The notes under the pieces were generated by a model. That model worked only from the letters and a program-made list of their open reading frames with translations, had not been told where the DNA came from and made no database searches. This document shows positions 428 through 44,126 of a stretch of DNA of 64,000 bases, piece by piece (the stretch's first letter is position 1; each line of letters begins with the position of its first letter). The position numbers were made by a program, and so were the translations under genes. The DNA comes from Marsupella aquatica (taxonomy: Eukaryota; Plantae; Marchantiophyta), in NCBI GenBank assembly GCA_973895155.1, contig OZ316899.1, positions 4,281,241 through 4,345,240 of the forward strand. The letters run 5' to 3'.

Positions 428-431
428 CAAG

Positions 432-11136: not shown

Positions 11137-11989
11137 GTGATTGAAAAGAGTAGGTAAAGTCAACATTGCTAAGGAGTCACAACAAATGAGTGGATAGTTT
11201 GTAGAAGTTATACTTAAGACATATTTAGTGATAAGACCCTAAACTTCCATAGCCTTGTCACATTAGTCAATAGTGGTTTGGTCAAAAATAGGGGGTATTT
11301 CTACTAGTGCCCCCTCAGGCCAAGACTCACCTCCACCACTACCAACAGAACCTCCAAACTGGCCAGTAGCAATGCCACCACCACCACTATGAGGGCAAGA
11401 AACAGAGCTAGCCATAAACTGACAAGGAGGACCACCACCACCACCACTACCCCCCTCAAGCCAAGACTCACCTCCACCACTATGGGGAGAACCTCCTGAT
11501 TGACTCCCTACACACCCACTATGAACAAGATATGGTGTGGGCACATGACCCGCAACCCTCTCCCCCGTCTGTCGCAAAACACTTGGTACACTACCAGGGC
11601 CGGCCCAGAACTGATGATACATGACACCATTGTGACGTTGCCGGTACGGTGGGTAATGAGTGATTTGGCCTAACACTTGCGTTGAGGGTATCTTAGGCCG
11701 TAATTATTAGCATAACGATAGTATTTAGGTAGCCATTATGAGTAGGAAATCATTAGTCAATAAGGGGCGTTCGTGTTTGGGCTGGCGGCGGGTCGCCATT
11801 TCGCACACCCGGGTTGCGAGCGTGTAATGGGCCCTCCACTCTTTCCCCTCGGGTTTGTATAACGAATTTTGGGAGGCGGCCACTGACACGCACTGACTCG
11901 GACTGGCGGAGTGGCTGGTACACTGCAAGCGTGAAAGTCTCGGCCTATAAGCAACAAGGAGGCGACCAGTGATCGACGAGCGATCAGGG

Positions 11990-11996
11990 TATAAAA
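11990..11996 (+). promoter_or_regulatory. TATA box upstream of the family A LTR ORF (also 20511 and 35501)
   Basis: TATAAAA lies 355-359 bp from the LTR start and 106-108 bp before the ORF ATG in three copies; mutated to TGTAAAA in the 41434 copy. Confidence 0.65.
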
Positions 11997-12095
11997 AGAG
12001 TGCTGATCCTTTGCAGTGCACCAGTTCTTCAAACCACGCACCAACTTTGACCCCAATTCTCTTGCTTATCCTTAGTTGCCTTCCATCTCCTCTGA

Positions 12096-14771
12096 ATGTC
12101 GCACATGATCCTTTCCAGTTTGGCCATACGATTTTGGACGCAGTTCTTGTCTATCGGAGGGCACTTGGCCGACTCGTTGAAACACACCAACCCGCGACGA
12201 TACGAGATTGAACGCGAGTACGAGAGAGCCATCCGCCTAGCAGGCCGCCATCACTATCTCCTTAACTTTGATTACCCATCCCAGAGCGAGCTTTACCGAC
12301 CCAAAGAAATATCAGGGTACTTCTTCAACGGAGGCAAATATATCAATTTCTAGGAGGCATTGCTTTGGCTCCCGGATGAGGTCTTCAATATCCCGGGCAC
12401 AATCAACTTACAGCGGCACCACTTTGACCACATTCCCGCTCGGGTCCGGGACATCATCAATAGCGAGCCCAGCGCTACCCGATCTACAAGGGCGCCTACA
12501 CTTGCGTCAGAAAACCTCTACCGGCACCTACAGAATTTCATGGCAACCACACCATCGACCACCGGTGCCAGCCCAGCCATGCCCGCACCAGCACCAGCTC
12601 AGGCTCAGGCTCAGGGTCAGGCTCAGGCTCAGGGTCTGCCTTAGCTTAGCCAACCCCCGCCCCTACAGGTGAGATCCGTCATCAACGCTGTGGACGTCAG
12701 CGACGACAAAGAGGCTACCTTACCCCTGCTCAGGCGGCCTAGAGGAGTAAGTACCCAGGGAGCCGGCACTACATCGCCCCTTCCCGAGGCCCGGACCAGA
12801 GTAGCGGCTCCAACGGACAACACGGTGACCGTAGCCGCCCTGGCCCCAATACTAACGGCAGTGGCACTACCTACACCCGATTGAGAGGATGGGGAGGTGT
12901 CACCTTCCCCGAGCCAGTCTTGGGGAAGGAAGAGGAAGGAACCCACAACTATATCCGGGCTACCCATGGCCACGGTAGCCGCGGCCAAGGTAACAATGCA
13001 CCGCATGGGGGAAAACGTGCATAAGAACATCCTCCACCCAAAACATGCGGTGTACTTGAAGACTCAGGGGTTCGAGCACCTCGCCTCTCTCCCCTGGAAC
13101 ACCTACAGATACTACAGGGAGGACATGACGGAGTTCGTCAAGAATTATGATGACGTCCGTCAGCATACTGGGCTGCAGGGGAGGAATATGTCCTTCACAG
13201 AGGAACGGCTCAGGATGATCTTTGGGCTACCCGAAGGCGATCACCGAGTCAAATCACGGGCTCCCGGGGGCAAGGGAGCCAAATACCAATCCTCTAGTTT
13301 TCCCTCCGAGGGGTCAGTGGACAACGGGTTCGTGATGAGGACCTACCTCATCCCCGAGATAGTTGAGCGGCTGGAGTTCCAAAGGTACGCCCTCCACATG
13401 ATGGAACCCTGGGGCAAGATCTCCGCTGCCCAGGTTATCCAGGTCAAGAACTATCGACCTAGGAAAAGGGCTTTGTACTTCGCTAAGAAGTTCCATGAAG
13501 AGATGGAGCAGCAAAGGAAGTCGCTATACATCGGCGGGAAGGCATATTTTGCAAGCCACATCGAGATCATTCTCGAGTGGTACGCCCGGTTTGATCGACG
13601 AACCCTTCCCCAGGTCAACGTAACTAAGTTGGTCCCAACTAAGTGGATCTTCCCGGCCTTGGAGAGACGGCCTCAACCCGAGGCCCAAAGTCCGGCGGCG
13701 ACGCAGGCCTCACCCATCCAACCTCCACAGGTAGCAGTAGCCGTGGCCAAAGAAGTACCGGAAGAGGCAGTGATTGCAACCTTAGACGCGATCAACCAGG
13801 CCGGGCCTAGTGCAAAAGTCAGGGCGGTGGAGGCCTTGCCCAAGCCCGAAGGTCCAGAAGACCCACCAATGGCTATTCCAAAGGACGACCTGATGGTGGA
13901 GGAGGACACTCCAGCCCCTTCCAACACTACATCCCCAGGGCTGGATGTCACTACCCCGGCTCCCACGCGAGTTAACGTCTGCCCGTGCCCAAATCCAGAC
14001 GGGCATAACCTGGACCACCCGGAACTCTTCGTACCGGGTACATTTCTAAATGGGATTTTGGGAGATTTCTCCGAACAGATAGCCCAGGATACCGGGGAGT
14101 TCATGGCTTGGAAGGTAGCCTACTTCTTCAATCAGGAGTTGGTTACCGCAATAAAAGCAGGTTGGGCTCAGTCGGAGGCCCTTCAGCGGATAGAGCGGTA
14201 CCGGGTTGAATCTGTGTACCTAAAGGATGAAGTTGTAGCTCAAGAGGCTTAGTTTGTGCAACTACGACCCAAGGTTGTAGTCGCCGATGAGTTGTTAGCA
14301 AATGCGCATGCCCTTACCGCCTTGGCCAAACAAGCCAAAGCCGGGAAGGAGGCCGAGATTGCACGGCTCCAGACCCAGGTTGACAGTTTGAAGAACCCAA
14401 CTGTCATCTGGCAAAAAGACCTAGAGGAGGCCGAAGAGCGGGCCCAGCGTGACACTGTGGAGATTGCCACCATGCAGGCCGAAGTGGCACGGCTTCAAGC
14501 CGAAGCCGAGAAACAGACCCAGGTGGTGGACAAGCTGACGAGCAACTGGAAGAGGCATGCCAAGAGGCAGCTGGGGAGGTGGACGCGGCGAAGCAAGAAA
14601 ACAAATCTTTGCTGGACTTTCCCCAAAAAAAAATTCAAAAAAAAATTTTCCAAAAAAATTCCAAAAAAAATTCCAAATTTTTTCCACCCGTTTGCTGTTA
14701 CGAGTAACTATTTGTTGTTTGCTGTTTGCTGTCACGGTGGTTATACCCAGAATAGACTTAGGAGTAGCTAA
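12096..14771 (+). pseudogene. Family A LTR-encoded protein (~880 codons, one frame, four in-frame stops, garbled 3' end)
   Basis: ORF-track pieces 12096, 12360, 12669, 12897 and 14256 are all in the same frame, separated by single TAG/TGA codons; colinear with 35607-38207. Confidence 0.85.
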
Positions 14772-16199
14772 AACAGGCTGGTAGGACAAGTGCCGGCCAG
14801 AAGATAGTGGCGCTGACACATTAGCCAGCCTATGTAGAATAGGTTAGACTAATAGGACAAGCAGGCACCAGCTTAGTAGGGATATAAGTTAGTGTAGATT
14901 CGGGCACAAGGCCAGGCCGGTCCTCAGCCCTTAGTATTTAGCGGCCCCCCTAGTAGAGGTTAGGGAGGGGGTTTTTAGACTCAAAAGTTGGCCATTCACT
15001 GTACGCATGGGGAGTCCCAAACTCAGTGAAGTACCGGAGTACCAAGGGGAGGGTATACGACTAAGCTCATTGGGCGAGTGCGGAGCTGGGCTCTATTGTA
15101 GTTTATACTCCTCGGCCTTGGGCCCGGTCGTTCACGAGGTGTCGGGTCAACCAATCGTAAAGTGTATGATCATAAATGAATGAAATCCTTTCTCCTTAAT
15201 TCCTTCGTGTAAATCAAGATTTCTGTTATGTATGTATGCATGTATGAGTCTCGTGTGCAAGTATCAATGTCGGGCCGAACATGTTATGCCAACTGTGCAC
15301 GGGGTGCAGGATATGGGTACGGGGTTGCGAGCCCGAGTTGAGCTCTTGTACTAACAGATCCGGATCGAAGGCGGTAACATGAAGGCTTAGAAGTCCATGA
15401 GCCGGGGTCGACCCCATGTTGACTAAGGTATGTTCCGGTGGCAGAACACAAACTATACCTAGGAGGTGTCTGTACATAACAGTAAGCGCACTTAGCGCTA
15501 GTTTACGTGAATTAGGAGCATTTCGTGCGTCCCTCCCTGCCCGAACCCTCATATTCACAAAGGATGTGCCTGTCTAAGCCAAAGCCTGGGTTAAGGCCTA
15601 GGCTGACGACGTGACAACCACCACCACAACCCCTTGCAGGCCAAGACTTACCTCCACCACTACGGCCGGAACCTCCAGACTGGCTAACAACTCAACCACT
15701 GTCAGCATGAGATGGTGTCGGCACATGAACATCTTGGACTGTCAAGAAGCACCTGGTACAATATCAAGGCCAACCCTAAACTGACAAGGAGCAACATCAC
15801 CCCCTTGGCCACCTCTAGCAGCAGGAACCCAAGATGCACTACCAACCCCTTGGCAACCTCTAGCAGCTGGAACCCAAGACGTACTACCAACCCCTTGTCC
15901 ACCTCCAGCAATTGGAACTTGGGACTCACTACCACCACTCCTGCCTGGTAATCTCCGACAAGGAGGCATATCACCTCCAGTGCTCTCCATCCAACAAGTG
16001 GGGCCACCTACACCCCTACCAAACTGGTGATGTCCCCTGACCAACCATGTGCACTAGTAGAAGGTCTTACTGGAGCCTCGGCCACACTCCCTTCCAAGGG
16101 ACTGTCCTCCTTGTCCTTCCCCTCAGCATCCTCTTGACTACTGTCCAAGTGCTCCTCACCCCCTCATCATCTTGCACATTACATTAATCCCAAATCCAT

Positions 16200-18701: not shown

Positions 18702-18833
<132 letters not shown>

Positions 18834-19022
18834 TCAGATGGATAGACTCCAATTTTTTCAAATTTCAAGAGTTCTCACTGTTTTGAAATAGCTTTGCACC
18901 TTGCATAAATCTCAAATAATGCTTGAATGAAAATAAGACATGTTCTGTAGGAAACCCTAAGTAAGCCCACCCAAACCTCCAAGGGATGGAATTTATTGTC
19001 TCTCAAAATCTGGAGGGGATAC

Positions 19023-19142: not shown

Positions 19143-19866
19143 CTGCAAGTTGAAAAATTTTCAAGGGGATCATCATCAGTCAAAGTGAATGCAAAAGTAT
19201 TCTTGAGAAAGAAAGTTGTATGGCAAGCTTGAAGAAGTTAATCCCAGATGGACTTTGCACTTGAACGTTACCTCTTGGATGGAATGTACAGCGGTGATAC
19301 CTGTCCCTAAGGCACCACTAAGTTTGCAATTTGATTATAAACTCATCAGGTATATTTGTAAGCATAGGAAGTGATAAAGTTTTGTAAATTTATCAAAAAC
19401 TAGACTAATGGTCTAGAATACCACGGAACCCCCTAAAACATGACGGAATGGCGGTACAAACTATAAAGCAAGATGGCATAAGTACGTTTAGGGCAGTGGC
19501 CAGTAATGAATGTTTAGAGGTATAGGGCAAAGTCTCTGGTGGACATACGGTCCCGCTTCACTTAAATGGCCAGGTTGGGTGTTGAGGGTATCTTGTGGTA
19601 ACAAGCCTGTTGAGGAAGTTGCTATTTTTCAATTTCAGTTATCAATAGAAGGCAAAGCTCAACTGATGGCTGACAATAGCAATCTTGCTGAGCATGGGGG
19701 AATTGCATTATTTGTCTGGCTGTAAACAAAAGTGGTATACTAGCATAAATCAGGCACAGCATTTCTGGGGATGCCTATTGAAAGAGGCTAGTAAGTTAGT
19801 TGCAACTTAAAAGTTTGAAGAGACAGAGCAAGCTACGCAATAAAGAGTAGAGCCTGATTGATCACC

Positions 19867-20152
19867 TGTGGAAGTTGCATTGTACTGTCTTGCTTTCTAG
19901 GTGGCCATTTTATTAAGGCAACACTCTTGTGGGCCCATGGACGCAATCTATATATTGTTCTTCTAAGCAACATTGGACCTTACTTGTCAGGAACAACTGC
20001 AACTTGGAAGTGGGAGCTTGTCTTAGGAGCGGGCTTAGGACGCAAAACATCTGATCAAGCCAAGAAGTGCAAGAGGATAGTAAATTCAGCCCCTTTGAGC
20101 CAGACAAGGAAGGCCAGGTAGTGACAAGCAAGCCAAAACCCAGCAGCACCAG
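19867..20152 (-). repeat. Probable distal part of a minus-strand copia 3' LTR, split by the 20153-52486 insertion (other part 52487-52939)
   Basis: TSD ACCAG joins it to 52487; the minus strand ends ...TTCCACA at 19867. This boundary is tentative. Confidence 0.4.
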
Positions 20153-22030
20153 TGTGACATCGCCAGCACGACGGTTAATGAGTGATCCGGTCTAATCCGT
20201 GCTTAGCGCGCGCGCTAAGGACATAGTAGTCCGTAATAATTAGCATAACGACACTAAAATAGGTAGTAACCATGACTAGGACATCATTAGTCAATAAGGA
20301 GCATTTACGCTTGGGCTAGCGGTGGAGCACCATTCGTACCCCGGGTCACAAGCGTGTAGGGATGCACCCTTTGGTCCGTATAATGAATCAAGGGGGCGGC
20401 TCACTGACATGCTCTGACCCGGACCTGCGGAGTGGCCGGTACACTGCAAGCGTGAAAGGATCGGCCTATCACAAGGAGGAAGGGACCGTTTGGCCAATGA
20501 GCCCTCAGGGTATAAAAGGCGGGCCATTCTCTTGTGAAGCACCACCACTTCACCCTTTGCGCCAGCTTCGATCCCAACTTACTTGTTTGCTCCTCAGTCA
20601 CCCACCCCCGTTCCCTATATGTCTGTCACGATTATGTCCAGTTCTGCCCTTTGATTTTGGCTTCAATTTCTATCCATCGGAAATCATTTAGTGAAGTCGC
20701 TGGCCGAGGTCAACCCGCGCCGATACAAAACCGAAAGGCAGTATAAATGACTCATCCGCTTAGCCGGGTGCTCTCACTATAACGGAGATTTTAGCCTCCC
20801 GTTCTAGAGCAAGCTCTATCGTCAACACTTCTTCGACGGCCCAAAGTACGGTGGTTTCCAGGAAGCCCTCCTTCGGCTTCCGGATAAGGTCTTCATACTC
20901 CCGGGCATGATCAACTTACAACGACACCACTTCAATCATATCCCCGCCAAAGTCTAGGCTTCCATAGACTATTAGTTTGGTACTGCAGCTACGGGCGAGA
21001 CATCTATCCTAACCTCACTCGGCTTCCCCTCAGACTTGCTGAATCATATGGCACCTCTTCCAGCTACAACCATCCAACTCATCGGTGCTCGCGCCAACAC
21101 CACCTTGGCCTCAGCCAAGCCGATCTCCACCACCGGTCGCACCACCCCTCCGGGTGTGATCCATGGCAAATTTGGTCAATATCAGTTCCGAAGACGAGGA
21201 AGCTCACCCTCCCCTGAACTGGTGACCTTGAGGTGCAAATCAGCATGCACCGGGCAACCCAACACCACTCACACAAGCCCGGGTGGATGACACGGTGACA
21301 ATAGCAGCCCCAACACCAGTGCTTAGGGCAGTAGCTCTGCTGCCGCCCAATAGAGAGGATGGGGAGATGTCCCCCTCTTCAAGTCACCTGAAGAACCAGT
21401 CTCGGGGTAGGAAGAGAAAGGAACCCGCAACCGTATCTAGGCTGCCTTTGGCCACGGTTGTGGTGGCCAAGCTGACCATGCATCGCATGGGGGAGAATGT
21501 CCACAAGAACATCCTCCACCCCAAGCATGCATGCTACTTGAAGACCCAAGGGTTTGATCACCTTGCCTCTCTTCCTTGGAATGGAAGCAGGTATTACGGG
21601 CAGGACATGATGGAGTTCATCCAGAACTTTGATGAAGCCCGCCAACAAACCCGAGCGCATGGGAGAGTGATGTCCCTCAATGAGGCACGTCTTAAGATGA
21701 TCTTCAGCCTACCCAAAGGAATAAATCGGGTGGAATCACGGGCTCCCTGCATTACTCTGGGGTAATGCCCTTAAGCTCGGGTGGATGACACGGTGACAAT
21801 AGAAGCCCTTAAGCCGGGGTTGATCCAACTATCGACTTAAGGTACGTTCCAAAAGTAGAACACAAACTATACCCATGACATTTCTATACAAAGGAATAGG
21901 CGCACTTAGTGCTAGATTATGGGAATAAGGTTCAGTTTGCACATCCCTCCTTGTTTGAACCCTCAAAACTAATGAAGATTATGCCCGTCTAAGCCAAAAT
22001 CCTCGCAAGGACAAAGCTTATGGCGTGACA
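20153..22030 (+). repeat. 5' LTR (family A) with ~2.1-kb internal deletion
   Basis: TGTGACA...CGTGACA; homology to other copies jumps from mid-ORF (21746) to the 3' part (about 21801). Confidence 0.88.
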
Positions 22031-22043
22031 TAGCCTTTGTTTT

Positions 22044-22061
22044 TGGCGCTAGATGGAGGGG
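22044..22061 (+). promoter_or_regulatory. PBS, tRNA-Asn type (TGGCGCTAGATGGAGGGG), 13 nt from the LTR
   Basis: Near-complement of the plant tRNA-Asn 3' end CCCUCCUUCUAGCGCCA (recalled); T-rich spacer as in Athila. Confidence 0.65.
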
Positions 22062-22867
22062 GTGTTCTACGTATAGTAGAATGGAGACATGTGCATATGT
22101 ACCTGATCACGGGACCTTGGGCCCCTGATAGTTGTTAATCATTGCATTTATAAGAGTAAATGCCCGTCACTTGTTCTCAAGTGGCGTACTTGAGGAGATT
22201 GACAAGCAAACAAGAGAGTGCAACCACAACAAGCTCCAAATATTTAGGCTCGGAGGACTCACAATTTCCTCAATAGATGAACATACCACCGGGACCTTCG
22301 GGATCCGGTCCAGCCGGTCCTGCTCTGGTACCTGCTGCACCACCACTAGCGCCACTGCCACCACCGGTACCCACGGCAGCAGCCCCTCCGGCTGTGGCTC
22401 GCATTGCCCAAGCTCCCCCACAAGTATCACAATGATCGCGGTTTCATTATCAACCTTTCAAAGGACGTCATGGGGACGATCCAAATGAATGGCTGGATGA
22501 GTTTGAAGCCACTGCTAAGGCCAACGGAGAGGATGCCATTAAGTTGACCATTCTCCCCGGAGTAATGCAAGGAGAAGCTTGTCCATGGTACAACTCGCTG
22601 CAGCCCGGGATCACATGGCCACAATTCCAAGCTGCGTTGCTACAAGAGTTTCGTGCCATTGGAGCGGAGCAGAGTTCCTTGTTGAAGATTGGTCAGCTTC
22701 GCATGGGAAAGGAGTCCTTGCAAAAAATTATTCAAAAGTTCCAGAAACTTGCTGCCAAGATCCGGCCTAGGCCAGGTGATGCGCTCTAGCTTACATGGTT
22801 TCTACATAGATTGCCCACAAATATGCAATTTTGGGTGCGCCAGAATAACCCAATTTCAATGCAAGCA

Positions 22868-25800: not shown

Positions 25801-27579
25801 GAGGCCGAGTTAGGGAAATCCTATCAAGGGATTATTGCGCTGCAGCAGGAGCTTGTGTCCCTGATGGCCAACTTCAAGGCTGACCTGCGTGAGAAGGACA
25901 ACCAGCTTGACCAAACTTATGCCAAGATGAATAAGATGGAGTTTGAGTTCGTAGCGGAGCTCGACAAGGAGCTAAGAGCAACCCAGGAGGAGAGGGCTAC
26001 CTTAAAATTGGAATTGGAGGAAGCCAGAAAGGAGCTGCAGGAGGGACGGAAGGACCTGGAGGAAACCCAGGAGGAGTTGGAGGAAACCACCAGGAAGATG
26101 GAGAACTTACAGCGGCGGGCCAACAACCAAACGGAGCGGCTGAAGAAACAGGCCACAGTATTTAAGTGCTTTGCTTCATCTGGTCCAATTCCAATTGTGG
26201 GAACTCCGTTACCAGGAGAGGTACTGGCCGAAGGACAAGCCGAGACACACGCCCCGGTGCCGGAGGTAGGTAGCAAGGGGAAGGGACCAGCTACCAAAAC
26301 AGGGAAGAAGAAGAAGCGGAAACCTTCTGGGTCTGGGAGTTATACGGCTTACCAAGCCGTTGTGACCTAGGAGGTCAACCCGACACCAACCTCCGGCATG
26401 GTCACGGCAGTAGATCCACCTGTTGAAGAAGGTGGGGATGGCAAGGCCAAGGCCGGGACAGCTATTGATGAAGCCGAGGTACCAGATCCTCCACTAGAAC
26501 ATGTCGGGAAGGCCGAAGCCGTATCGAAGGCTGTGACCAATGCTGAGGCCAAAGCCGAGGGTGGACCTAGTCAAGCCGATAAAGAGTTGACTCGGTCCGG
26601 GGCAGGTAATCCATCAGAGGATGGACCGACGGTAGTGGCTGCGGGGGAAGCGTTGGGGGCGTCCATTGAGGATCCGCCACCGGTGTCGTGACGGTGCAAG
26701 GGCGCCGTTCCTTTTAGGAAGGGCGGACGTGGAAGTAGGAGGCGTGAGTGGGCAGGGCGGGTTCAGATCTCCAAGTTTAGGATTAGGATCAAGACCAGGA
26801 GACGGCCCTGACACTTAGATTAGTGGGATTGCGGATCCACTGGTAGGAGCAACACTTGTGCTCCTGCCTCGCTGTACAGTTAAGTAGATTACAGGTAGGA
26901 TAGATTAAGCTTACGCAGCAAAGTTCTGGACAGATCCGCTGCCAGGATAAATACCTGGGCAGCGGGGAGTCCAGGGCCTCTTCTTTAGCAAGTTTTTAGT
27001 TGCACCAGCAGGGCTGGGATCAAGTAGTAAGAGAAGCTCTCGGTTAGTTATACAGTGATCCTTGTGTATATTCATGTTTCCTCATGCCTAAGAACTGAAT
27101 AGAGTTGGCCTCACGGCTTAGTTCGCAGAGCTTGTGTATGAGATGTACTGTTTGTATGGCAAGTGCATGGTATAACTCAGTCAGAAGGAGTCATTTTGTT
27201 ATTTGTGTGTCGCATTAACTTGTGTGAAGAGTGCCCACATCAATGAAGGGAAGTAGCAAGGGAGTGAGAGTTGGATGTGTCGAGCTGAGAGAGGTCTTAG
27301 CGGCTTAACCAAGCCAATTGGGGATCATTCCAGCGGCGGAATCCAAACATACCTAATGGAAGACCAGGAGAGGAATACAAGGGAAGGCCTAAGTATCTCA
27401 TGACCCGATGAAGGATCTGTCCAGTATATGTGTGTAAAATGTTAATAGTAGTAGAAGGAGAGTTAGCAGCGTCCCATGCCGCTAAGCCACGGAAACGGCC
27501 TCGCCAAGGACAAAACCTGCGGGAATCGGCCTGAGCAAGGGGGTTTTCTTGGGTTTGGGGAGCCATGGGACGCACCACA
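22868..27579 (+). mobile_element. Solo-LTR-type element, family B (4,712 bp), containing a long ORF
   Basis: TGTGATGC...GCACCACA termini; perfect TSD AAGCA; no gag/pol, PBS or PPT of its own. Confidence 0.9.
22978..26691 (+). pseudogene. Family B LTR-encoded protein (1237 codons from 22978, or 1148 from ATG 23245; three in-frame stops)
   Basis: ORF pieces 22978, 24895, 25726 and 26398 share one frame, separated by single stops; C-terminal half is a long predicted coiled coil. Confidence 0.88.
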
Positions 27580-28696
27580 AAGCAGCCATAGCGTGCGCCC
27601 AAACATACAAGGAATCCACCTATAACTCCCGACAAAGCCAACGGCCACGACATAAGAGGAGCAAGTATGAGACCTTCAGTGACACTGACTCTGAATCTGA
27701 CGACAAGAAGAAGAAGAAGCGTAAGAAGAAGAAGAAACATTGTTTGACCTTGTCCAGTCTGGAGACAGGGTCTAGTTTGGATTCAACTTTGACTAGTGGC
27801 TCCTCCCCCTCAAACTCATTGGGTAGTGATTCGGAGAGCAAGACCCGGAGCAAGAAGAAGAAGCGGCGTGCTAAGAAGGAGGAGAAAATCAAACCCCGTG
27901 TTCAAAGAAGGATACCAGATCCTAAGGCCGCTGAAACAGACAAGCTCAACAAAATCACTGATCGCCTCAAAGCATTGTCGGTACATCTTGCGAAGAAGCC
28001 TATGGAGAAGAAGAAGCCATACAAAACCTGAGCTTCAAATGTTTCCAATCGGGGCATGTTATGCAGGAATGCCCGAGATGGAAGAATCGAGTCCATCAGG
28101 TGGAACTAGATGATGTTGACAGCCCAAGCCCAAAACCAGAGTCCAGGGAGTACTTCTTCAAGAACCCCCTGACTCCGTGTATCAGATATCGACGGTGGGT
28201 CCTCAGAAATTGGCTGGCAAAACTGCGTATCCATACCCAAATGGTGGCTGAGGCTTCCAAGTGATAAGTAACCCGACCATTCCTCCTAAACCAGGGATTT
28301 GGCAATCTCTGGTTTGTTACAATTGTGAGAAGCCCGGTCACTTTGCAAGGGAATGCACGGAACAAAGACAACAAGGAGATGGCCGAGGCATGCCACTATG
28401 TCAAGTTTGCAAAATGAAGGCCCATTCCACGGCTAATTGCCCATTGGTGATCGCTGCACGAGCAAGCGCGGCTAGGTTGGCCCCACGTGGACCAGCTCCG
28501 AGCAATGCAGTCATGCAAATGATCACTGTAGAATGGCAAGATGATAACACCAAGTGGGTAAACTTGGTCGATGTAACGGAACACCCAATCCGTCGGATGA
28601 GGCCGAATGTTATCGTGTGTCAACCAGATCCGAACAAAAGCAAGAGAAGCAAGAAGAGAAACGTTGCAGGGAACCAAGACACCACGCCAGTGCAGC

Positions 28697-31600
28697 TGTG
28701 GTGCGTCCCATGGCTCCCTAAACCCAAGAAACCCCCCAGCTCAAGCCGATTCCCGCAGGTTTCGCGCTTGGCGAGGCCGTTTCCGCGGCTTAGCGGCATG
28801 GGACGCTGCTAACCTTCTTCTACTACTACTATTAACATTTACACACATATACTGGACAGATCCTTCATCGGGTCATGAGATACGTAGCCGGCCTAATCTA
28901 GGCCTTCCCCTGTCTTCCCCTCCGTCTTGTTAGGTATGTTTGGATTCCGCCGCCGGAATGATCCCCAATAGGCTTGGTTAAGCCGCTAAGACCTCTCTCA
29001 GCTCGACACATCAAACTCTCACTCCCCTGCTTACTTTCCTTCCTCTATTAGTTGATGTGGGCACTCTTCACACAAGTTAATGCGACACACAAATAGCAAA
29101 ATGACTCCTTCTGACTGAGTCATACCATGCACTTGCCATACAAACAGTACATCTCATACACAAGTTCTGCGAACTAAGCCGTGAGGCCAACTCTATTCAG
29201 CTCTTAGGCATGAGGAAACATGAATATACACAAGGGTCTCTGTATGACTAACCGAGAGCTTCTCTTACTACTTGATCCCAGCCCGGCTGGTGCAAACTAA
29301 AAACTTGCTAAAGAAGAGGCCCTCAGCTCCCCGCTGCCCAGGTACTTATCCTGGTAGTGGATCCGCCTAATTCTTTGCAGCGTAAGCCTAATCTACCTAA
29401 CAGTAATCTACTTGCCCGGATCTACCTATGTACAGCAAGGCAGGAGCACAAGTGTTGCTCCTACCAGTGGAACCGCAATCCCACTAAGCTAAGTGTCAGG
29501 GCCGCTCCTGGTCCTGATCCTAATCCTAAACTTGGAGATCAGCGCCCGCCCTGCCCACTCACGCCTCCTCCCTCCACGTCCGCCCTTCCTAAAAGGAACG
29601 GCGCCCTTGCACCATCACGACACCGGTGGTGGATCCTTAATGGACGCCCCCAACGTTTCCTCCTCAGCCACTGCTATAGGTTCGTTCTCTGACAGATTAC
29701 CTGCCCTTGACTGAGTCAACTCTCCATCGGCCTGACTGGGTCCACCATCGGCGTCGGCATCGGCTCGGAAATCGGTTACGGCCTCAGCCTCGGCTACGGT
29801 CTCCCCGGCCTGCTCAAGAGGAGGATCTGGGATACCGGCCTCATTATTGAGTAGTTCGGCTTGGGCCGCACCATCCCCACCCTTGATGATAGCGGAATCT
29901 ATTGTCGTATTCATGCCGGAGGTTGGTGCTGGGTCTACCTCCTTGGTTACCACGGCCTGTGGAGTCGGATTACTCCTTGACCCTGAAGGTTTCCGCTTCT
30001 TCTTCTTTTCTGGTTCGGCAGCTGGTCCCTTCCCCTTCCCACTTACTTCCGGCACTGGTGCAGGTGGCGCGGATTTTTCTTCGGCCAGTACCACTCTTGG
30101 TAACTTGGTTGCTCCAATTGGAGTTGGGCCTGATGAAGACAAGCACTTAAATATTGCGGCTTGTTTCTTCAGCCGCTCCGTTTGGTTGTCGGCCCGCCGC
30201 TGAAGGTTCTCCATCTTCCTCGTGATTTCCTCCAACTCCTCCTGGGTCTCATCCAGGTCCTTGCACGCCTCCTCTAGTTCCTTCTGGGCTTCCTCCCGTT
30301 CTTTCTTCAAGGTAGCCCTCTCCTCCCGGGTTGCTCTTAGCTCTTTGTCGAGCTCTGCAATGATGACAGACTCCATCTGATTCATCTTGGCGTAAGTCTG
30401 ATCGAGCATCTCGTCCTTCTCCCTTAGGTCGGCCTTGAAGCTGGCCGTCAGGGACGCAAGCTCCTACTGCAGCGCCATAATCCCTTGATAGGATTTTCCT
30501 AACTCGACCTCCTTCTGCTCAAGGGCTCCGCGGATTTTCTCGAGCTCCCCCTTCAACGCCCATTCCTTTCTTTGGGTCTCCGCCATGGCCCGGCTGTTGG
30601 CTGTTATGTGGGCCTCCTATGTATTCCTCAGCTCTCGCTTCCACTTCTCCCTCTCTTTGATCGTATCGGCCAACTCTCCCTGCGTCTGAGTCAGTTTATC
30701 CTTGATATTCTGATTATCAGCCTGCGCGGTGTCCAACTGCCCCTGCATGATGTTCAGCTCATGCCGTTTAATCCGCAGTTCATCTTGGGCTTTCTTGGCC
30801 GCCCTTAGATCTTCAATCTTGGCTTCCATCCTCCTAAGCCGCCGAATGACCTCGTCCTTCTTGCTTCTCTCTAACGCCACCGCTTCTTCTAATTGGTGCT
30901 TCTCCAACTGCTCCCTATGGAAAAAGGGTCCTACCTCCAACTCCTCTCCAAAGATGCCGAGCGCAAGTTCCCCACACATCTCACCATACTCCATGGCTCT
31001 ATTCTTAGCATAGGTGGAGTAAGTAGAAGTGATCGGCATCGCCCATCGCGGCCTGTGCTCCCAAGCCGTCTTGCGGATCTCTTCAATCGTGGCTAGAGGT
31101 TTGCTTCCTTTTTCGGCTAGCCGCCTGATGTCCTCCGGCCAATCTCCTCTTGGTAAATCCTTTTCCCTAGCCAGGGCTGCCTCCTCTTCCTGCCTGATTC
31201 GCTCCTAAAATTCATGCGCCGTCTGTTTTATGCCGTCAAAGCTCGGGGGAGCAACATCTGGTGGGGGAGACTCAGGGCTACTCTGTTGGTTGGGGTCCCC
31301 TCATACTACCCTTGGAAGTGTGGGGACAAACCGGCCACAGGTCCTTACTCCTGGAACGTGATGGTCCGACCCATAGCCGGACTTATCATGGCTGAAGTCC
31401 TCCACTGCCTCCTCTTCCTCTTGGACGTCCGGCTTTTCCCTCTCCTCTTCGTCGGTAGGAGCTTCAGGCAATTCTGCCTCAGATTCAGAGCTTGAGACTC
31501 CCACATACATTCGAACACCTGGCTTGGATTCCGGCCTGATTCTCTCCTCGTCTCCAGCAAAGGGGTTTTCTCTTGTGAGCCGGTGTAGGCCTACCTCTGG

Positions 31601-33365
31601 AGTAGTGTCCTGCATTGTTGCCGTTGCCGTTGTCGTTGCCGATGCCGATCTCTTTTCTTTCTCCAGTAGTTTCAGCAGACTCTGCATGCCTGGTTGCTGC
31701 ATCGACAAGTCCTCCTTCCTGGGCCTAAACACCTGCTCGATCGTAGGGCTAATAGGTGGTTGAGGCTTCTCTGCTACCGGTCTCGGTTCTGGAGCTCTCT
31801 CGGGTGCCCTTACCTGCAGGGGAAGTACTGGGGCAAAAGTCTGACCTCTGGCATACCGGCACAACAGCGGCATGTGATAGCCAAGCCGCGATACGCTCCC
31901 CATGCCGATTACCTGCTGCTCCTCCTTTAAGATCTTCTTCAATTGGTTGAGAAGGTACCCGTTGTAGTCCCGGCTTGGGTCTGGCCTCTCTACCAGATAG
32001 ACCTGTGCCTTGCCGATCTCTGCCCTCGGCAAGTTACAATGCATGGTCACCCGCAAGAAGTCGATCATCTCTCCTATGTGCGGGTTGGTGCAGGTGTTCC
32101 GGAAGAAGCCATTCTTCGTTGATGGCCCGGGGAACGACCGGAACTCCTTATCAGGCAAGGTCTTCCTGGTATCAACTTTGGTCTTATTGCCTATCGGCAA
32201 GCCAAACACTTCGGCAATCACCCTGGGAGTAAGATAGAAATCCTTCCCATATATCCTCGTGCAATTGGTCTCGGGTTCCCATGACCCCACAAATTCTAAT
32301 AGGTCTGACTCCGGTACCTCCGGCTTCAGCCATGGTAATCTTACAAAGGCCTATAAGCCGGATCCGGCCATGAAGCCTTGGTACTTCTTGGTCTGCATGG
32401 CCGTAAAGCATGCATCCTCCTCCCGTGCAAAATGTAGTTGCACCTCCACTGGTAGGGTTGCCGCCCAGCCCTTCCAGGTGTCATCCCTGGTTGGAATGGC
32501 CTTGATGGGATCGACCTCCTCCTCTTCAGCTTCTCCCTGCCTCCTGCTCTGCTGCTCGGCTGGCTTCTTTGGTGCCGCCGACCTTGTTCTTTTCGCCGGG
32601 GTGGCTTCATCGTTGATGGCTCCCTTCCTCTTCATCTCTGCTGCCGTGGAGGTTTCTCCTAGCACCGTTGCCTGGGTCCACCTTTCCGTGCTACCCTTTA
32701 ATTCCCAGTGTATGTCGTTGCAGTTCTTGATGGCCTCTCGGATGCCGACGACGCTGTCTTTGCAAAACAGAAGATCGTCGAGTTGATTGGAAGTAGGAGT
32801 CCACAAGAACTCGTCCTTGATGAGTTTGCCTCCTAAGAAAGCCGTCTTCTGCAGCTCCCACAATCGAGCGAGCTCCTGCCGTTCTCGAGCTGCCCTTTCT
32901 GATTCCTTGTCCTCGTAAGTCTTGATGTACTCAGTTGCCCGTTTGAACAGGCATCCCCAGAAATGTGCCGCTTGATTGACGTTGCTCATACCCTCCTTAG
33001 GTCGATCGTCGGTATCTACTCTCTCCCCGAGTGCTTGCCTAAGCAGCTGACAGTAGTTGGCCTCCCGTAGTCGTCTGCCTAGTTCGTGCTCGCAAATGAG
33101 CCACCATCTCCTGCAAGCGCTCCTTACCCCTCTCCTCTTCAGGTCCTTCCTCCCGTTGATCCTTCCTAGCCGCCGACGCTTAACACGCCCTAACCCTAAT
33201 CGAGTTTTCACCCCCAGCGTCCTTACCTCCAGCCTCGGCCCGGGTTCCATGGTCGCCCCTAATTGTTTATATTTTCCTTGTTTTGTCCCTATACTAAGGT
33301 GTTTCTAGGGTGCCTTCCTGCTTTACCCACTTAACTGGCCGAGTGATTCCTGTCTAGGCATCACA
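28697..33365 (-). mobile_element. Solo-LTR-type element, family B, second copy (4,669 bp), inverted
   Basis: Reverse complement of 22868-27579 end to end; perfect TSD GCAGC. Confidence 0.9.
29615..33250 (-). pseudogene. Family B LTR-encoded protein, second copy (one frame, in-frame stops only)
   Basis: ORF pieces starting at 33250, 32290, 31039 and 30409 are all in the same frame. Confidence 0.88.
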
Positions 33366-35145
33366 GCAGCCAACGGTAGAAATACCCCCTGAGGAGGACG
33401 ACAACTACTACTATCGGGATGACCCGAAGCTATTCTACCCCCGCATCAAAGAGTTGGTAAAACAACAGTTGGAAGCATATGAGGCACCGGAATACCAAAA
33501 AGCAATCGATAAAGACCTAAAAGTAGTTGAGGCCGCGCAATGGGAAGAGCAAGAGAAGAGAGAAGCGAAAGCAAAGCTACAGCCAAAGGAAGAAAAGAAG
33601 GAAAAGTACAACATTAGACAAGATGTGAAGAGTTGCCCAATCACAGCGACAGTAGGACAACTACTCCAAAATAATCCCCAGTACCAGCAAGAACTGAGGG
33701 AGTTGCTCATGGGCCGACAAAGAAGATGGCTACCACGGGTAGGAGTCACGGACTGTAATATGATCTGCAAGGACCTGGGAGCGCCAGACATCTTGATCGA
33801 GATCAAGGGTTGTACCATCAAAATGGTTCTCGTGGATGGCGGAGCGGGAGTCAATATTATGACTGAGGAAACATTGGTAAAATTGGAGTATCTCACGTAT
33901 CAACCCACAACCTGAGCTATTCGATTAGCAAATGGTGCAAGGGTACTTCCTCTGGGCACGCTCACCAAAGTTCTCACCCTCATAGGAGGTGTGGAGTTTT
34001 ATCTAAACTTTTTGGTCATGAGGCCGGTCCGACCATCTTCTTACCCGGTCCTCTTGGGAAGGCCGTGGCTGTACGGTGGCCGTGTAGTCACGGACTGGGG
34101 CAAGAAGGAGCTACAATTCGGGACACCCACGGTATGAGTATCATGGGCGGTGGACGATTATCAGGGCAAGACTCCACAAGGACCAGAGGAGTATGATTTG
34201 GAGACCTTGGAGGAAGAAGAGCTCAACATGATTGAGCTTATTTTGTCCCTGTCCAAGGAAGATGTGCACCTCCTGAATTACCCAAAAGTTGCTATAGACG
34301 GAGCCACCCCGAGCCTCTTTGGCGCCCCGGCAGAGGAACAACAAGAACAGGCTACCAGTTTGGAGGATATGGAGGATACGGCTCCAGCTAAGCAGGGAGC
34401 CGATGCTGCCGCCACCGATGCGGACTCTATTGACCGGGAACCGGCCAAATCATTGCCCAAAGCTGAAATCCCAAGGCCAATGCATAAGAAACGAGTCTCC
34501 TGGGATCCATCCATCCCACAACAAGTGGAAGCAACCTCACTTCCAAAACCAATCCCGGTCCCATCCATGTATGGAGGAGTTTGGTTAGCCCAGCTGGATG
34601 CAAGCCTGGACCCTAGCTTGCGGAACCAGGTGGAGGTCATAAGGAAGGAACACTACCGGAAGTACACCATCGGAATGGACAAGTCTTTCAACTTAGGCCA
34701 TGCTCTAAAGGGAGAGGCAGAAAAATCCATCCAAGCACTGCTCAAGGAGTATGAAGATGTGTTTGCGTGGAGCCATCACAATTTGACTGGAGTCACCCTG
34801 AGCTAGAAGAAGACACGATTGATTTGAACCTAGGGGCTCACACCGTACGGCAACGGCAACGTTGCATGAACCCGAGGTACTCCATTTTGGTGAAGGAGGA
34901 GATTGATAATCTCCTAGCCGCATACATCATCTACCCGATAATGGCCAGTGACTGGGTGTCTCCCATCATCATCGTGCCGAAGAAGGGTGGTACAAACGGG
35001 AAGCCCAAAATTTGCATCTGCCGGGACTATCGTAGAATCAATGACGCCACCCGAAAGGATCACTACCCGTTACCATTCACGGATATGGTTCTAGATATGG
35101 TAGCCCGTAATGAAATATATACATTCCTTGACGAGTATTCAGGCT

Positions 35146-38100
35146 TGTGACACCGCCAGCACGGCAGTTAATGATTGATTCGGCCTAGCCGTGCTTAGCA
35201 CGCCCATTAGGGGCACCGTAGGCCGTAGTTATTAGCATAACGACACTAAGTAGGTAGTACTTATGACTAGGAAATCATTAGTTAATAAGGGGCATTTATG
35301 TTTGGGATGGCGGTGGAGCACCATTCATACTCCCGGGTTACAAGCGTGTAAGGGGACACTTCAGGTCCGTATAACAAATTCTTGGAGGCGGCTGCTGACA
35401 CGCTCTGAACCGGACCCGCGAGTGGCCAGTACACTTTGAGCATGAAAAGCTCGGCCTATAGGAAGGGAGGAGGGGCCAGTCAAACAATGAGCCCTCAGAG
35501 TATAAAAGGAGGGCCATTCTCTTGTATTACACCCACACTCCATTCCGCGCGACAGCTTTGATCTCAACCACTCCGTCCCTCCTTAGTCGCCCGCCACCAC
35601 TCCTGGATGTCTGTCACGATATTGTCCAGTTTGGCCCTTCAATTTTGGCTGCAATTCCTATACATAGGGAGTCACTTAGCCAAGTCCTTAGCCGAAATCA
35701 ACCCGCGCCAATGCGAGACCGAGCAAGCTTACGAGAGAGCCATTCCCTTAGCCGGCCGTAATCACTATAACGGCAGCTTTGACCTCCCATTTCAGAGTGA
35801 GCTTTGCCGAGATGACAAAATCAGCGAGTACTTCTTCGTCAACGAGAAGTACGTTGGGTTCTGGGAAGCGCTTCTTCGGCTTCCAGACAAGGTTTACCAT
35901 CTCCCGGGCACGATAAACTTGCAGCCGCACCACTATGACCATATCCCCGCCCAGGTTCAAGCCTCCATAGATAGTTAGTTTGGCCTTGTTCGAACAAGCT
36001 AGACTCCTATCTTAACGTCACTCAACTTCCCCAGGGACTTCCTGAATCTAATGGCGCCTCCCCCAGTTGCAACTGGCGCCCACCCATCCATGTCCGCGCC
36101 AACACCGCCTTGGCCTCAGCCAAGCCGATCTCTACCACCGGTCGCACCACCTCTCCAAGTATGATCTATGGTGAATGCGGTGAACATTAGTTCCAAAGAC
36201 GAGGAGGCCCATCCTCCCCTGAACCGGTGGCCTCGGGGTACAAATCAGCATGCGCCAGTCAACCCGACACCACTCCCACAAGTCCAAGGGGACAACACGG
36301 TGACTGTAGCTGCCCCCGCACCGTTACTCACAGCGGTAGCGCTACGGCCGCCCAATAGGGAGGATGGGGAATTGTCCCCCTCTTCAAGTCACCCCGAGAA
36401 TCAGTCTCGGGGAAGGAAGAGGAAGGAACCCACAACCATATCTAGGTTGCCGTTGGCCACGGTTGTGGTGGCCAAGCTGACCATGCATCACATGGGGGAG
36501 AATGTTCACAAGAATATCCTCCACCCCAAGCATGCATGCTACCTGAAGACCCAAGGGTTTGAGCACCTTGCCTCTCTCCCTTGGAATGGAAGCAAGTACT
36601 ACGGGAAGGATATGACGGAGTTCATTCAAAACTTTGACGAGGCCCGTCAACAAACCCGAGCGCACGGGAGAGTGATGTGTCTCAACGAGGCACGTTTGAA
36701 GATGATTTTTGGCCTACCCGAGGGGATAAACCGGCCAGAGTCGTGGGCTCCTAGGGGCAAGAGAGCTAAATACCAGTCCTCTAGCTTCCCAACCGAGGGA
36801 GCAGTGGACAATGGATTCTTGGTGAGGATGTGCCTCATCCCGGAGGTAGTAGAATGCCTGGAGTTCCAGCGGTATGCCCTCCACATGATGGAACCACGGG
36901 GCGAAATATCCGTCGTCCAGGTCATACAAGTAGAGAACTTTTGGCTTAGGAGGTGGGTGTCCTTCTTTGTCAAGAAGTTCCACAAGGAGATGGAGCAGAG
37001 AAGGAAGACCTTATACCTTGGCGGAAAGGCGTCCTTCGCGAGCCACATTGAGATCATCATCAAGTGGTACGCTTGTTTTGACCGCCAAAGCCTTCCCCAT
37101 AGCAACAAAACAGAATTGACTCCATCAAAGTGGGTATTCCTGGCTCAAGAGAGGCAACCACAGCCCGAAGCCCAAAGCCTGGCAGCCGCAGGACCTGCTT
37201 CCCCGGCCCCACAACCAGCCGCTACCACCCCGCCAAGCGTACCTGTGGATGCAGTTATCACAACCTTGGACGCGATCAACCGGGTCTGTGCAATCAAAGC
37301 CGGGCCGACTGAGGCCAGACCCAAATCCAATACTACGGTAGCCAAGGAGATCCCGCCACCCCCCACAGCTGTGCAGGAGAACCGCCCAGTGGAACCAGCC
37401 CCTTTGACCGACTTACCTCAAGGGCTGGATGTTTCCACTCCTACTCCCTCGCGGGCTGGGGTCTGCCCGTACCCGAATCCAGATGGACATAGTCTGGACC
37501 ATCCAAAACTCTTTGCGCCAGGCACATTTCTGAACGGGTTGTTGGGAGATTTCTCTCAACAAATCGCACGGGATACCGAGGAATACATGGCACGGAAGGT
37601 GGTCTACTTCTTCAACCAGGAGTTGGTTGCGGCTGTAAAGGCAGGACATGCGCAAGCTAAGATGGCGCAAAGAATAGAGCGGTACCGGGTTGAGTCTGTC
37701 TACCTGAAGGACAAAGTGGTGGCCCTAGAGACTGAACTCCAACAACTGCGGCCTCAGGTAACGGCCACAGAGGATCAGGTTGCCGAGGCCAGGGCCCGGG
37801 CAGCCTTAGCAGAGTAGGCCGGGCTTGGAAAGGACGCCAAGATCGCACGGCTCTGGACCAAGATTGACGGTTTGAAGGGACAAGCCGTCATTTGGCAGAA
37901 GGATTTGGAGGAAGCTGACTCTCGGTCTCAGCGAGATGCAGCCAAGATTGACACCCTGAAGACAAAGGTGGCGCGGCTTCAAGGAGAAGCCACGAAGCAG
38001 GCCCAATTGGTGGATAAGCTGACGAGCAACGTCCAGCAACTGGAGGAGGCATGCCAAGAGACCGCAGAGGAGACGGACGCGGCAAAGCAAGAGAACAAAT

Positions 38101-39095
38101 CTCTGTTGGATCAGGTCCAGCTACTCAAGCAGGATGCCAACAGGCTCAGGAGGCAACGAGATAGCCGCTCCCACTCGGGCGGCTCTGGCAAGCGTGCTAG
38201 GCATTAGTGGCGGAGTAGGATTCAAATAGAGTTAGGAGTAGCTAAATCGGGCTATAGGGACAAGCGCCTGCCCTAGTTAAAGCGCTGTTGCCATACTGTC
38301 CAGCCTGCGTAGATTAGAATCTTCTAATAAGACAAGCCATTTTCCGGCCTGACAACCAACTTAGTTAGGATCTTAGTTAGTGAATATTCTGGCTCAAGGC
38401 CACTCCGGTCCTCGGCCCTTAGTATTTAGTGCACCCCTTGGTAGAGGCAAGGGGGGTTTTTAGTCTCAGAGTTGGACATCCGCGGTATGTGCGGGGAGTC
38501 CCGACCTCTGTGAGTGAAAGAGTACCAAGGGGAGGGGGTAGGACTAAGCTCGCTGGGCAAGTACGGAGCCAGGCTCCATTGTAGTGTACACCCTCGACCT
38601 TGGACCTGTTCATTCAAGAGCTTTCGGGTCAACTAAGTGTTCGTGTATGTCCCCTATGTAGTAAAATCCTTTCCCATTATTTCCTTCGTGTAAATCAAGA
38701 TTGTATGCTTGTGTGTGTGTATATGTGTGAATCTCGTGTATGGGTGCCAACGCTTGGCCGAACGCACTACCCAAGCCGTGCACGGGGTGCAGCTTGCGGG
38801 TAAGTGGTTGCGAGCACGGGTTGAGTGACGGTATCATTGAATCCGGATCAAAGGCGGACAACACAAAGGCTTAGAAGCCCGTAAGCCAGGGTCGATCCCG
38901 CTATCGACTAAGGTACGTTCCGGCGGCGGAACACAAACCATACTTAGGGCGTAAGTAATAGTAGATGCACTTAGCGCTAGTTTACGTGAGTTATGTGCAT
39001 TTTGTGCTTCCCTCCCTGCCCAAACCCTCATATTTACAAAGGATGTGCCTGTCTTAGCCAAAGCCCGAGTTAAGGCCTAGGCTGACGACGTGACA
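35146..39095 (+). mobile_element. Solo LTR, family A (3,950 bp), inserted in the RT of its own family
   Basis: TGTGACA...CGTGACA termini; perfect TSD AGGCT. Confidence 0.93.
35607..38207 (+). pseudogene. Family A LTR-encoded protein (866 codons, one frame, in-frame stops; longest open part 36168-37817, 549 aa)
   Basis: ORF pieces 35607, 36168 and 37872 share a frame; colinear with 12096-14771. Confidence 0.88.
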
Positions 39096-44108: not shown

Positions 44109-44126
44109 TTGGGGCGATTGGATGAG

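Follow-up and report, generated by a model that had tools for sequence, protein, structure and literature searches.

A 64,000-nucleotide stretch of the genome of the liverwort Marsupella aquatica (assembly GCA_973895155.1, contig OZ316899.1, positions 4,281,241 to 4,345,240), called the window below and used for all coordinates, contains copies of two families of giant long terminal repeats (LTRs), family A with an LTR of about 3.95 kb and family B with one of about 4.7 kb. Each of these LTRs encodes, within the repeat itself, a large protein in a single open reading frame (ORF), and by sequence comparison the proteins of the two families are homologous in an N-terminal and a central domain, despite LTR DNA that can not be aligned between the families. 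The ORFs are under purifying selection between elements and decay neutrally after insertion, and the central domain is predicted to have the fold of the DNA-bound fragment of VANC21, a protein of an Arabidopsis DNA transposon. The repeat copies of both families were found by comparing the window with itself, and they are given here together with the features of the LTRs on which the analysis depends.

11631-15617, plus strand: A1, solo LTR of family A between ACCAT and ACCAC, a target duplication that agrees at 4/5 positions
about 12114-14771, plus strand: ORF of A1, carrying in-frame stops
20153-21747, plus strand: A2, 5' LTR of the host A element cut down to its first 1.6 kb, with the N-terminus and part of the central domain of the ORF
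22867-27583, plus strand: B1, solo LTR of family B, 4,717 bp, TGTGATGCC...CACCACA, perfect 5-bp duplication AAGCA
22960-22974, plus strand: TATA-like box of family B in B1, AAATATAAACAATTA, about 270 bp upstream of the ATG; also at 55898-55912 and, on the minus strand, at 33274-33260
23245-26691, plus strand: ORF of B1, 1,148 codons, three in-frame stops, no frameshifts; LTR positions 379-3825
about 23245-23590, plus strand: N-terminal domain of B1
23785-24447, plus strand: central domain of B1
33365-28697, minus strand: B2, reverse-oriented solo LTR of family B, perfect duplication GCTGC
32986-29615, minus strand: ORF of B2, 1,123 codons, five in-frame stops, no frameshifts
35146-39096, plus strand: A3, solo LTR of family A, 3,951 bp, TGTGAC...GTGACA, perfect 5-bp duplication AGGCT
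35500-35509, plus strand: TATA-like box of family A in A3, GTATAAAAGG, some 100 bp before the ATG, with counterparts at 11989 (A1) and 20510 (A2)
35607-38207, plus strand: ORF of A3, 866 codons, four in-frame stops, no frameshifts; LTR positions 462-3062
36462-37124, plus strand: central domain of A3, 221 amino acids
38208-39096, plus strand: non-coding tail of A3, 889 bp, containing blocks of conservation, a stretch rich in UG and an excess of CTTAGT
41434-43234 and 50847-52454, plus strand: A4, 3' LTR of the host A element, split within the ORF by a nested Ty3/gypsy element
55803-58322, plus strand: B3, truncated LTR of family B, reaching from the head through the N-terminus of the ORF and the central domain to where the coiled coil starts

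Within family A the pairwise nucleotide identity is 68-76% for A1 and A3 and 91% for A2 and A4, and within family B it is 85-86% for B1 and B2 and 74% for B1 and B3. Between the two families, the first-pass annotation, a reading of the bare sequence that preceded this work, had reported dissimilar non-coding DNA, and this holds for the LTRs as a whole: they share no nucleotide similarity, nothing being alignable even with 7-nt words, and a sensitive blastn search gives two matches of 22-28 nt at chance level. The ORFs lie on the sense strand, start at a methionine 379-462 bp into the LTR and end 889-918 bp before its end, so that they occupy 66-73% of the LTR length and are located wholly within it. 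As a consequence of this location, each element has two copies of the gene and solo LTRs retain it, in agreement with the earlier claim of a gene carried twice per element and surviving in solo LTRs, of which A1, A3, B1 and B2 are the instances in the window. The starting methionine is aligned between the families, lies inside the LTR and is preceded by stops. From there the protein runs through a helical N-terminal domain of about 110 amino acids, a disordered basic linker, a globular central domain of about 210 amino acids, a proline-rich linker and a long coiled-coil-like tail. All nine peptide strings searched for from the first-pass annotation (five full blocks and four short fragments) are present where it had placed them, and the basic patches and the long coiled-coil-like tail that it had described are found in both families, the evidence for the coiled coil being Pfam matches below threshold; the likeness of the tails is compositional, with an hhalign E-value of 0.06 between A and B. 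A nuclear location of the A and B proteins may be suggested from the basic patches.

The homology of the two proteins is clearest in the central domain, where A3 and B1 are matched by BLASTP with 62 bits (E 3e-14, 23% identity over 181 amino acids), the A and B profiles by hhalign with Prob 95.9 and E 6e-9, and 31 columns are invariant across five copies of the window. For the N-terminal block, the window copies alone give no significant match (hhalign E 0.1-0.3), and an A profile enriched with nine outside homologues sharing this N-terminus gives Prob 95.1 and E 3e-8 over 108 columns by hhalign, and 20-25 bits by hmmsearch; the alignment starts at the initiator methionine and includes the FW motif. 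A third block is not among the hhalign matches between A and B, and a profile dedicated to it reaches an E-value of 1.5 at a different place in B. Hence the earlier proposal of a homology in three blocks stands for the central block and, by means of the enriched profile and in the register that had been proposed, for the N-terminal one, and lacks support for the third. As a separate observation, a degenerate fragment at 19739-20112 on the plus strand resembles the N-terminal domain of type B in two pieces (47% and 31% identity); it is cut by the insertion of the A2/A4 element, just upstream of the insertion site, with no continuation past 52460.

To measure selection on the ORFs, the ratio of nonsynonymous to synonymous divergence (omega) was calculated with Nei-Gojobori counts from nucleotide-guided pairwise alignments, with two shifted frames as controls, and gave the following values, where CI is the confidence interval.

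B1-B2, whole ORF (1,111 codons): omega 0.26, 95% CI 0.22-0.31
B1-B2, by region: omega 0.09 in the central domain, 0.22 in the N-terminal domain, 0.33 in the linker and 0.30 in the coiled coil
A3-A1, whole ORF: omega 0.22, 95% CI 0.17-0.27; central domain 0.12
A2-A4, the LTRs of one element: omega 0.68, 95% CI 0.42-1.12, which includes 1
shifted-frame controls: omega 0.9-1.6

Protein-guided alignments give the same picture. With intervals that exclude 1 in both B1-B2 and A3-A1, the claim that the accessory ORF is selected is borne out. For A2-A4, omega is not below that of its own shifted frames (0.46-0.49), that is, a frame-specific signal is absent; since these two LTRs diverged only after insertion, and since omega is low between elements, the frame was constrained while the lineages diverged and decayed afterwards. 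At the DNA level, the best conserved part of the LTR is the non-coding tail: the tails of the two B solo LTRs (26692-27583 against 28697-29614) are 0.88-0.94 identical, compared with 0.73-0.93 in the ORF, where the synonymous divergence is 0.45, and the last 200 bp of the A LTR are 0.88 identical. Conservation of the tail above the synonymous sites of the ORF points to strong cis-acting constraint, or else to recent recombination or conversion between the B lineages.

That the repeats of family A are the LTRs of an LTR retrotransposon follows from their ends and from their arrangement. All A copies start with TGTGAC and finish with GTGACA or ATGACA, and the pentanucleotide ACCAG stands both before A2 and after A4; as this duplication is common to A2 and A4, and as the two are 91% alike, they are the two LTRs of one old element, while A1 and A3 are solo LTRs, A3 being inserted in the reverse transcriptase region of this older element. 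Its internal region is interrupted by three nested solo LTRs and consists of the pieces below.

21748-41433, plus strand: whole internal part of the host A element, in which the three solo LTRs are nested
21748-22866, plus strand: internal piece with Retrotrans_gag at 22436-22786 (27.9 bits, cut-off 24.1)
27584-28696, plus strand: internal piece with zf-CCHC at 28252-28812
33366-35145, plus strand: internal piece with a protease-like LLGRPWL motif and the start of reverse transcriptase, recognised by eye and by motif
39097-41433, plus strand: internal piece with RVT_1, RT_RNaseH and Integrase_H2C2 at 39201-40626

The Pfam scan of the piece at 33366-35145 gave no match. When the nested pieces are set aside, gag, zf-CCHC, reverse transcriptase, RNase H and integrase stand in the correct order between A2 and A4. 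The integrase frame reaches 41430 by tblastn and A4 begins at 41434, 3 bp after the end of the frame, leaving no spacer to separate pol from the 3' LTR; the bases directly before A4 are AGTAGGGAGCTA, a purine-rich tract. A2 has lost its 3' part together with the adjoining sequence where a primer-binding site (PBS) would be. Family B is counted as an LTR because of its TG..CA ends, its perfect 5-bp duplications and the parallel with A, and B1 and B2 are inserted within the A element's gag region, a location expected of solo LTRs. The identification of the repeats as LTRs in the first-pass annotation is confirmed by these ends and duplications, and by the position of A2 and A4 around gag-pol.

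The third B copy was considered as a true 5' LTR, for it is followed by a PBS and gag. At 58422-58433, downstream of B3, there is a perfect match to the PBS motif of the tRNA-iMet type, and gag follows. This candidate was rejected, because B3 is joined at about 58322-58335 to an element of another type, here called D, of which the last 85 bp of the LTR, the PBS and gag are present, and these align to the D-type element and not to B1 or B2. The D-type LTR itself (about 1.5 kb, without an ORF) is seen at both ends of the window in opposite orientation, at 363-1903 on the minus strand and at 61512-64000 on the plus strand, each adjoining a PBS of the tRNA-iMet type (416-427 on the minus strand, and 63009-63020). 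The order within 61512-64000 is D LTR, PBS, about 150 bp and LTR again, and the D segment shared with the B3 junction is found at 62925-63020 and, inverted, at the start of the window. The idea that family B is simply D plus an ORF was also rejected, given that the D LTR has no nucleotide similarity to the LTRs of A or B.

Relatives of the protein were sought with a profile of the central domain against 1.84 billion representatives, and 77 proteins were found at E<=1e-3, 24 of them at E<=1e-10 and one at E<=1e-30. Among 20 clusters looked up, those named by organism are all from liverworts (Calypogeia fissa and Riccia sorocarpa), the others being unnamed proteins of assemblies or metagenomes. 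In several homologues the N-terminal domain is followed, as in A and B, by the basic patch, the central domain, the linker and the coiled coil, and one of them, with 906 amino acids and the same architecture, is naturally intact. When 94 retrieved proteins were searched back onto the window by tblastn, matches appeared at the A and B LTR copies only, and a word-indexed protein search with the ORF of A3 had no match. Two homologues of Riccia sorocarpa, P0060 and P0061, are annotated as fused to fragments of DDE_Tnp_4, a transposase of PIF/Harbinger type; these fusions are either mergers of gene models in repeat-rich DNA or a second type of mobile element with the domain. As to known families, the commonest weak Pfam hit is PF20167 (Transposase_32), which appears in three of 40 aligned members with a best E-value of 0.0058 and about 17 bits against a cut-off of 45. 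A kinship with PF20167 or the Athila extra ORFs, which the first-pass annotation had raised for checking, was not upheld, with none of the five window domains matching and those three members staying below the gathering score. PF03078 (ATHILA ORF-1) likewise has no match at gathering score in the window domains or the 40 aligned members, and no profile match to DUF287 was found.

At the level of structure, the central domain of A3 was modelled by AlphaFold2 from a 40-row alignment with a predicted local distance difference test score of 90.7 and a predicted template modelling (TM) score of 0.86. Searched by Foldseek against the PDB, this model has VANC21 bound to DNA (9lnj_A) as its sole non-trivial match (E 0.11, prob 0.87, TMq 0.51), all others having TM <=0.17. 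By VIA-align against 48,161 chains, 9lnk_A comes first with Z 7.5 and rmsd (root-mean-square deviation) 4.3, with 199 of 221 residues aligned to chain residues 294-585; four chains in all reach Z>=2, the runner-up has Z 2.3, and a second look gave the same Z. The B1 model of 537 amino acids has confident N-terminal and central domains and disordered linkers, and again 9lnk_A ranks first by VIA-align (Z 8.4, rmsd 4.4, 201 residues aligned), followed at Z 5.9 by a generic helical bundle on the N-terminal domain; in Foldseek 9lnj_A is second, with prob 0.21. Because its matches are generic four-helix bundles (Z <=5.9), the N-terminal domain is left without a fold assignment. By language-model features, DUF1985 and PMD clusters are among the nearest named clusters of both domains (0.85-0.88), the PMD lead being an Atlas cluster with 14% PMD members and a score of 0.85-0.87. 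We base the case for a VANC21 fold on the gap to the next match, the coverage of 90% and the agreement of two independent models. The analogy with VANC, offered as a guess in the first-pass annotation, gains predicted structural support in this way, VANC21-DNA being the outstanding PDB match for the models of both families.

The non-coding parts of the LTRs contain candidate signals for transcription. The TATA-like box in the LTR head is intact in three of four A heads, being altered at 41792 in A4, and invariant in all three B copies, and in both families it may act as a promoter element. The alignments of the tails, inspected by eye, show no conserved canonical TATA box, TATA-like strings being present in the B tail. 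The hexamer CTTAGT occurs eight times in the non-coding parts of A3 against 0.8 expected, with a density of 3.6-6.7 per kb in the A tails against 0.6 per kb outside the LTRs. A further motif, TTAGTATTTAG, is present once per A tail at the same place in three tails (14931, 38419 and 51824); it resembles the published VANC21 target YAGTATTAY at 7/9 positions, which may be coincidence.

These proteins can be compared with several known systems. VANC21, of the Mutator-like DNA transposon VANDAL21/Hiun of Arabidopsis (PDB 9LNK/9LNJ), binds a 9-nt motif that lies in non-coding sequence of the transposon encoding it, and removes the DNA methylation of these parts (PMC5735166). It resembles the A and B proteins as a transposon-encoded accessory protein, in the predicted fold of the central domain (Z 7.5 for A, 8.4 for B), in a coiled coil, which in VANC is predicted to mediate oligomerisation (PMC13547354), in having conserved domains between variable linkers, and in that the protein diverges by family while the non-coding DNA is unrelated. 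However, VANC proteins belong to a DNA transposon and are described as dicot-specific (PMC13547354), whereas the A and B proteins belong to liverwort LTR retrotransposons; VANC proteins carry DUF1985 and DUF287 (PMC5735166, Fig. 5 legend), to neither of which A and B have a profile match; and, unlike in VANC/VANDAL21, the gene of A and B is inside a terminal repeat without tandem arrays of target motifs. VANC is in turn structurally homologous to the PMD protein MAIN, according to an atlas paper of 2026, which also predicts that both VANC and the Athila domain form oligomers by way of coiled coils (PMC13547354). The PMD itself (PF10536), found as PMD-A in angiosperm Ty3/gypsy elements and in the host proteins MAIN and MAIL1, is a further Gypsy-encoded accessory domain (PMC5418596), and for both the A and the B domain one of the nearest named Atlas clusters contains PMD members, although PF10536 is not detected by hidden Markov model in the window copies or homologues. 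The ORFs of PMD-A lie in the internal region and are not known to occur in the LTR.

Among the other extra ORFs of plant Ty3/gypsy elements (the Athila 3' ORF with PF03078/PF20167, Ogre ORF1 and the Tekay 5' ORF), the likeness consists in the sense strand, patches like nuclear localisation signals and disordered stretches rich in proline (PMC11728184), and in the case of the Athila domain also in the predicted coiled-coil oligomerisation (PMC13547354) and the weak PF20167 signal in three of 40 homologues. These known ORFs either come after the LTR or PBS and ahead of gag, or follow pol and precede the 3' LTR, whereas those of A and B are wholly in the LTR, hence duplicated, and kept by solo LTRs. 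Protein-coding frames in the LTR sequence of a reverse-transcribing element do exist in vertebrate hosts. In mouse mammary tumour virus (MMTV) the sag gene lies in U3, and in human and simian immunodeficiency viruses (HIV/SIV) nef overlaps U3. These are unrelated proteins, and short compared with the 866-1,148 codons, 66-73% of the LTR, in A and B. Within plants, a 2020 review (PMC7264820) contains none of the phrases searched for ORFs in or within LTRs, and phrase searches of the literature, to the exclusion of supplements and subscription journals, gave no plant LTR-internal ORF among the matches listed. On the predicted fold, A and B would thus form a Ty3/gypsy lineage of the accessory-ORF-bearing kind, with a gene of VANC/PMD-type fold, set apart by the unnamed bryophyte family to which the protein belongs and by its location inside the LTR.

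Taking these results together, we propose that each LTR of two unrelated families of Ty3/gypsy type carries a complete, selected gene for a large accessory protein, predicted to bind DNA or chromatin by means of its VANC21-like domain, which would counter silencing or tune LTR transcription in trans; we give this proposal about as much belief as doubt. In such a scheme the LTR, with the TATA box of the head and the UG-rich signals of the tail, would be a transcription unit complete in itself, the basic patch would bring the protein to the nucleus and the coiled coil would oligomerise it. The protein of each family might then recognise short motifs in the non-coding parts of its own LTR, as in VANC/VANDAL, and act in trans on the LTRs of its own family, either countering host silencing or tuning transcription. 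For the expression of the gene, it is equally possible that the ORF is located in U3 and, like nef or sag, expressed from the 3' end, with the tail of about 0.9 kb as the working core of the LTR. In its most far-reaching form, the proposal would make each giant LTR an autonomous gene with promoter, ORF in R/U5 and polyadenylation signals, encoding a family-specific anti-silencing factor of VANC type, for which all copies including solo LTRs are trans-acting helpers that keep the family unmethylated; in this full form we regard it as distinctly unlikely.

Several results weigh against the proposal of a VANC-like accessory gene. All seven A and B copies in the window are broken, and an internal region of family B with its own PBS and gag-pol was not found there. 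In the Pfam scans of 12 window ORFs and of sets of 30 and 40 homologues, no family attained its gathering score; specifically, PF09331 (DUF1985) is absent from the window ORFs at E<=0.1 and from the 25 most frequent families of the 40 members at E<=1, and PF10536 (PMD) has no Pfam match in window copies or homologues and does not appear among the families listed. Sequence-profile searches of the PDB yielded eL22 (E 0.097) and coiled-coil proteins, VANC21 not being found, and overall no sequence-profile link to VANC/DUF1985, PMD or another Pfam family was obtained. As for the fold, the models were built from shallow alignments of 40 and 43 rows, and the notes of the aligner state that a best match at Z 7-8 can be a mere common arrangement. 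Moreover, the enrichment of CTTAGT is modest and was found after the fact, and Tandem Repeats Finder, run on heads and tails of the LTRs, detected no motif arrays, unlike the situation in VANDAL21.

The position of the ORF admits an alternative in which it is a 3' accessory gene in U3, equivalent to the extra ORFs of Athila/Tat, that was engulfed by the LTR as the polypurine tract moved upstream, and is expressed solely from the 3' end, by splicing or a subgenomic RNA. This is what the absence of a spacer between pol and LTR would suggest, the A integrase ending 3 bp before the 3' LTR, and the highly conserved 0.9 kb after the ORF in both families are as long as an ordinary LTR and could accommodate the true promoter, R and U5; the weak PF20167 signal fits as well. 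Yet a TATA-like box is conserved upstream of the ATG in the LTR head of both families, the ORF begins at an aligned methionine within the LTR with stops upstream, and the tail alignments show by eye no conserved canonical TATA box apart from the TATA-like strings of B, so that we consider this origin possible but rather unlikely. A different question is what the protein does, for the same fold may serve another job, namely that of a factor of the replication cycle, similar to PMD/MAIN or to the Athila domain, which acts in nuclear import of the pre-integration complex, in chromatin tethering for site choice or in particle assembly and not in the removal of silencing. Angiosperm Gypsy elements do encode PMD-A domains (PMC5418596), VANC is structurally similar to MAIN and is predicted, like the Athila domain, to form coiled-coil oligomers (PMC13547354), and a 3' extra ORF of Athila, which bears a nuclear localisation signal, partly matches PF20167 (PMC11728184), the very family that is the commonest, at sub-threshold level, among our homologues, while the LTRs are without tandem target arrays. 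Against such a factor, no Pfam family reaches threshold, the sole matching solved structure is VANC21 bound to DNA, and a protein of the replication cycle has no obvious need for a location in the LTR or for persistence in solo LTRs; we hold it to be unlikely.

A more radical doubt concerns the repeats themselves, which could be independent mobile units and not gene-bearing LTRs, or the ORF could be a captured fragment of a host gene or a nested insertion of no use to the element. The internal region of B missing from the window, B3 abutting the LTR end and PBS of another element, and the two Riccia homologues annotated as fused to DDE_Tnp_4 fragments would agree with this. It is nevertheless very improbable in view of the pairing of A copies around gag-pol with a common target duplication, the TG..CA ends and two perfect 5-bp duplications of B, an omega far below 1 in both families, and the same protein architecture kept from the same methionine by DNAs that can not be aligned.

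The remainder of the window holds further mobile elements and repeats.

43241-50844: nested Ty3/gypsy element inside the ORF of A4, with 845-bp LTRs 94.7% alike

This nested element has an uninterrupted pol frame of 1,136 amino acids (46539-49949), and the organism-named relatives of its pol are Riccia sorocarpa proteins only, with 55-58% identity for the best-ranked rows. Together with the relatives of the A and B proteins, they agree with a liverwort or other bryophyte as the probable source of the window, and speak against a seed plant. Near the start of the window, a unit of 2,025 bp is doubled head to tail (2011-4035 and 4035-6059) with 99.95% identity; a Ty1/copia gag (Retrotran_gag_2, 5670-6122) begins within the end of this unit, copia pol domains continue from there to about 9254, and the repeat at 2011-6059 looks like a very recent tandem duplication including part of gag, not an LTR pair. 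Between A1 and A2 there is a 45-bp tandem repeat (15801-15918, 2.6 copies, 87% matches).

For annotators, the outcome is an unnamed protein family with 77 cluster representatives, now labelled as hypothetical in liverwort genomes. To our knowledge, the ways in which LTR retrotransposons escape or reverse epigenetic silencing are largely unknown. If the proposal of a VANC-like accessory gene is true, a selected protein of VANC fold in LTRs would extend the anti-silencing strategy to retroelements and to bryophytes, and, should each LTR prove to be an autonomous gene, it would be the first retrotransposon counterpart of VANC and would place the VANC/PMD fold in bryophyte mobile elements well before the dicot capture event proposed for VANC. 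The finding also touches on where the PMD/VANC fold came from, the host or mobile elements being the first to have it. A VANC-fold protein in LTRs would further supply a reason for giant LTRs, and solo LTRs, beyond being promoters or relics, would become potential protein-coding helpers.

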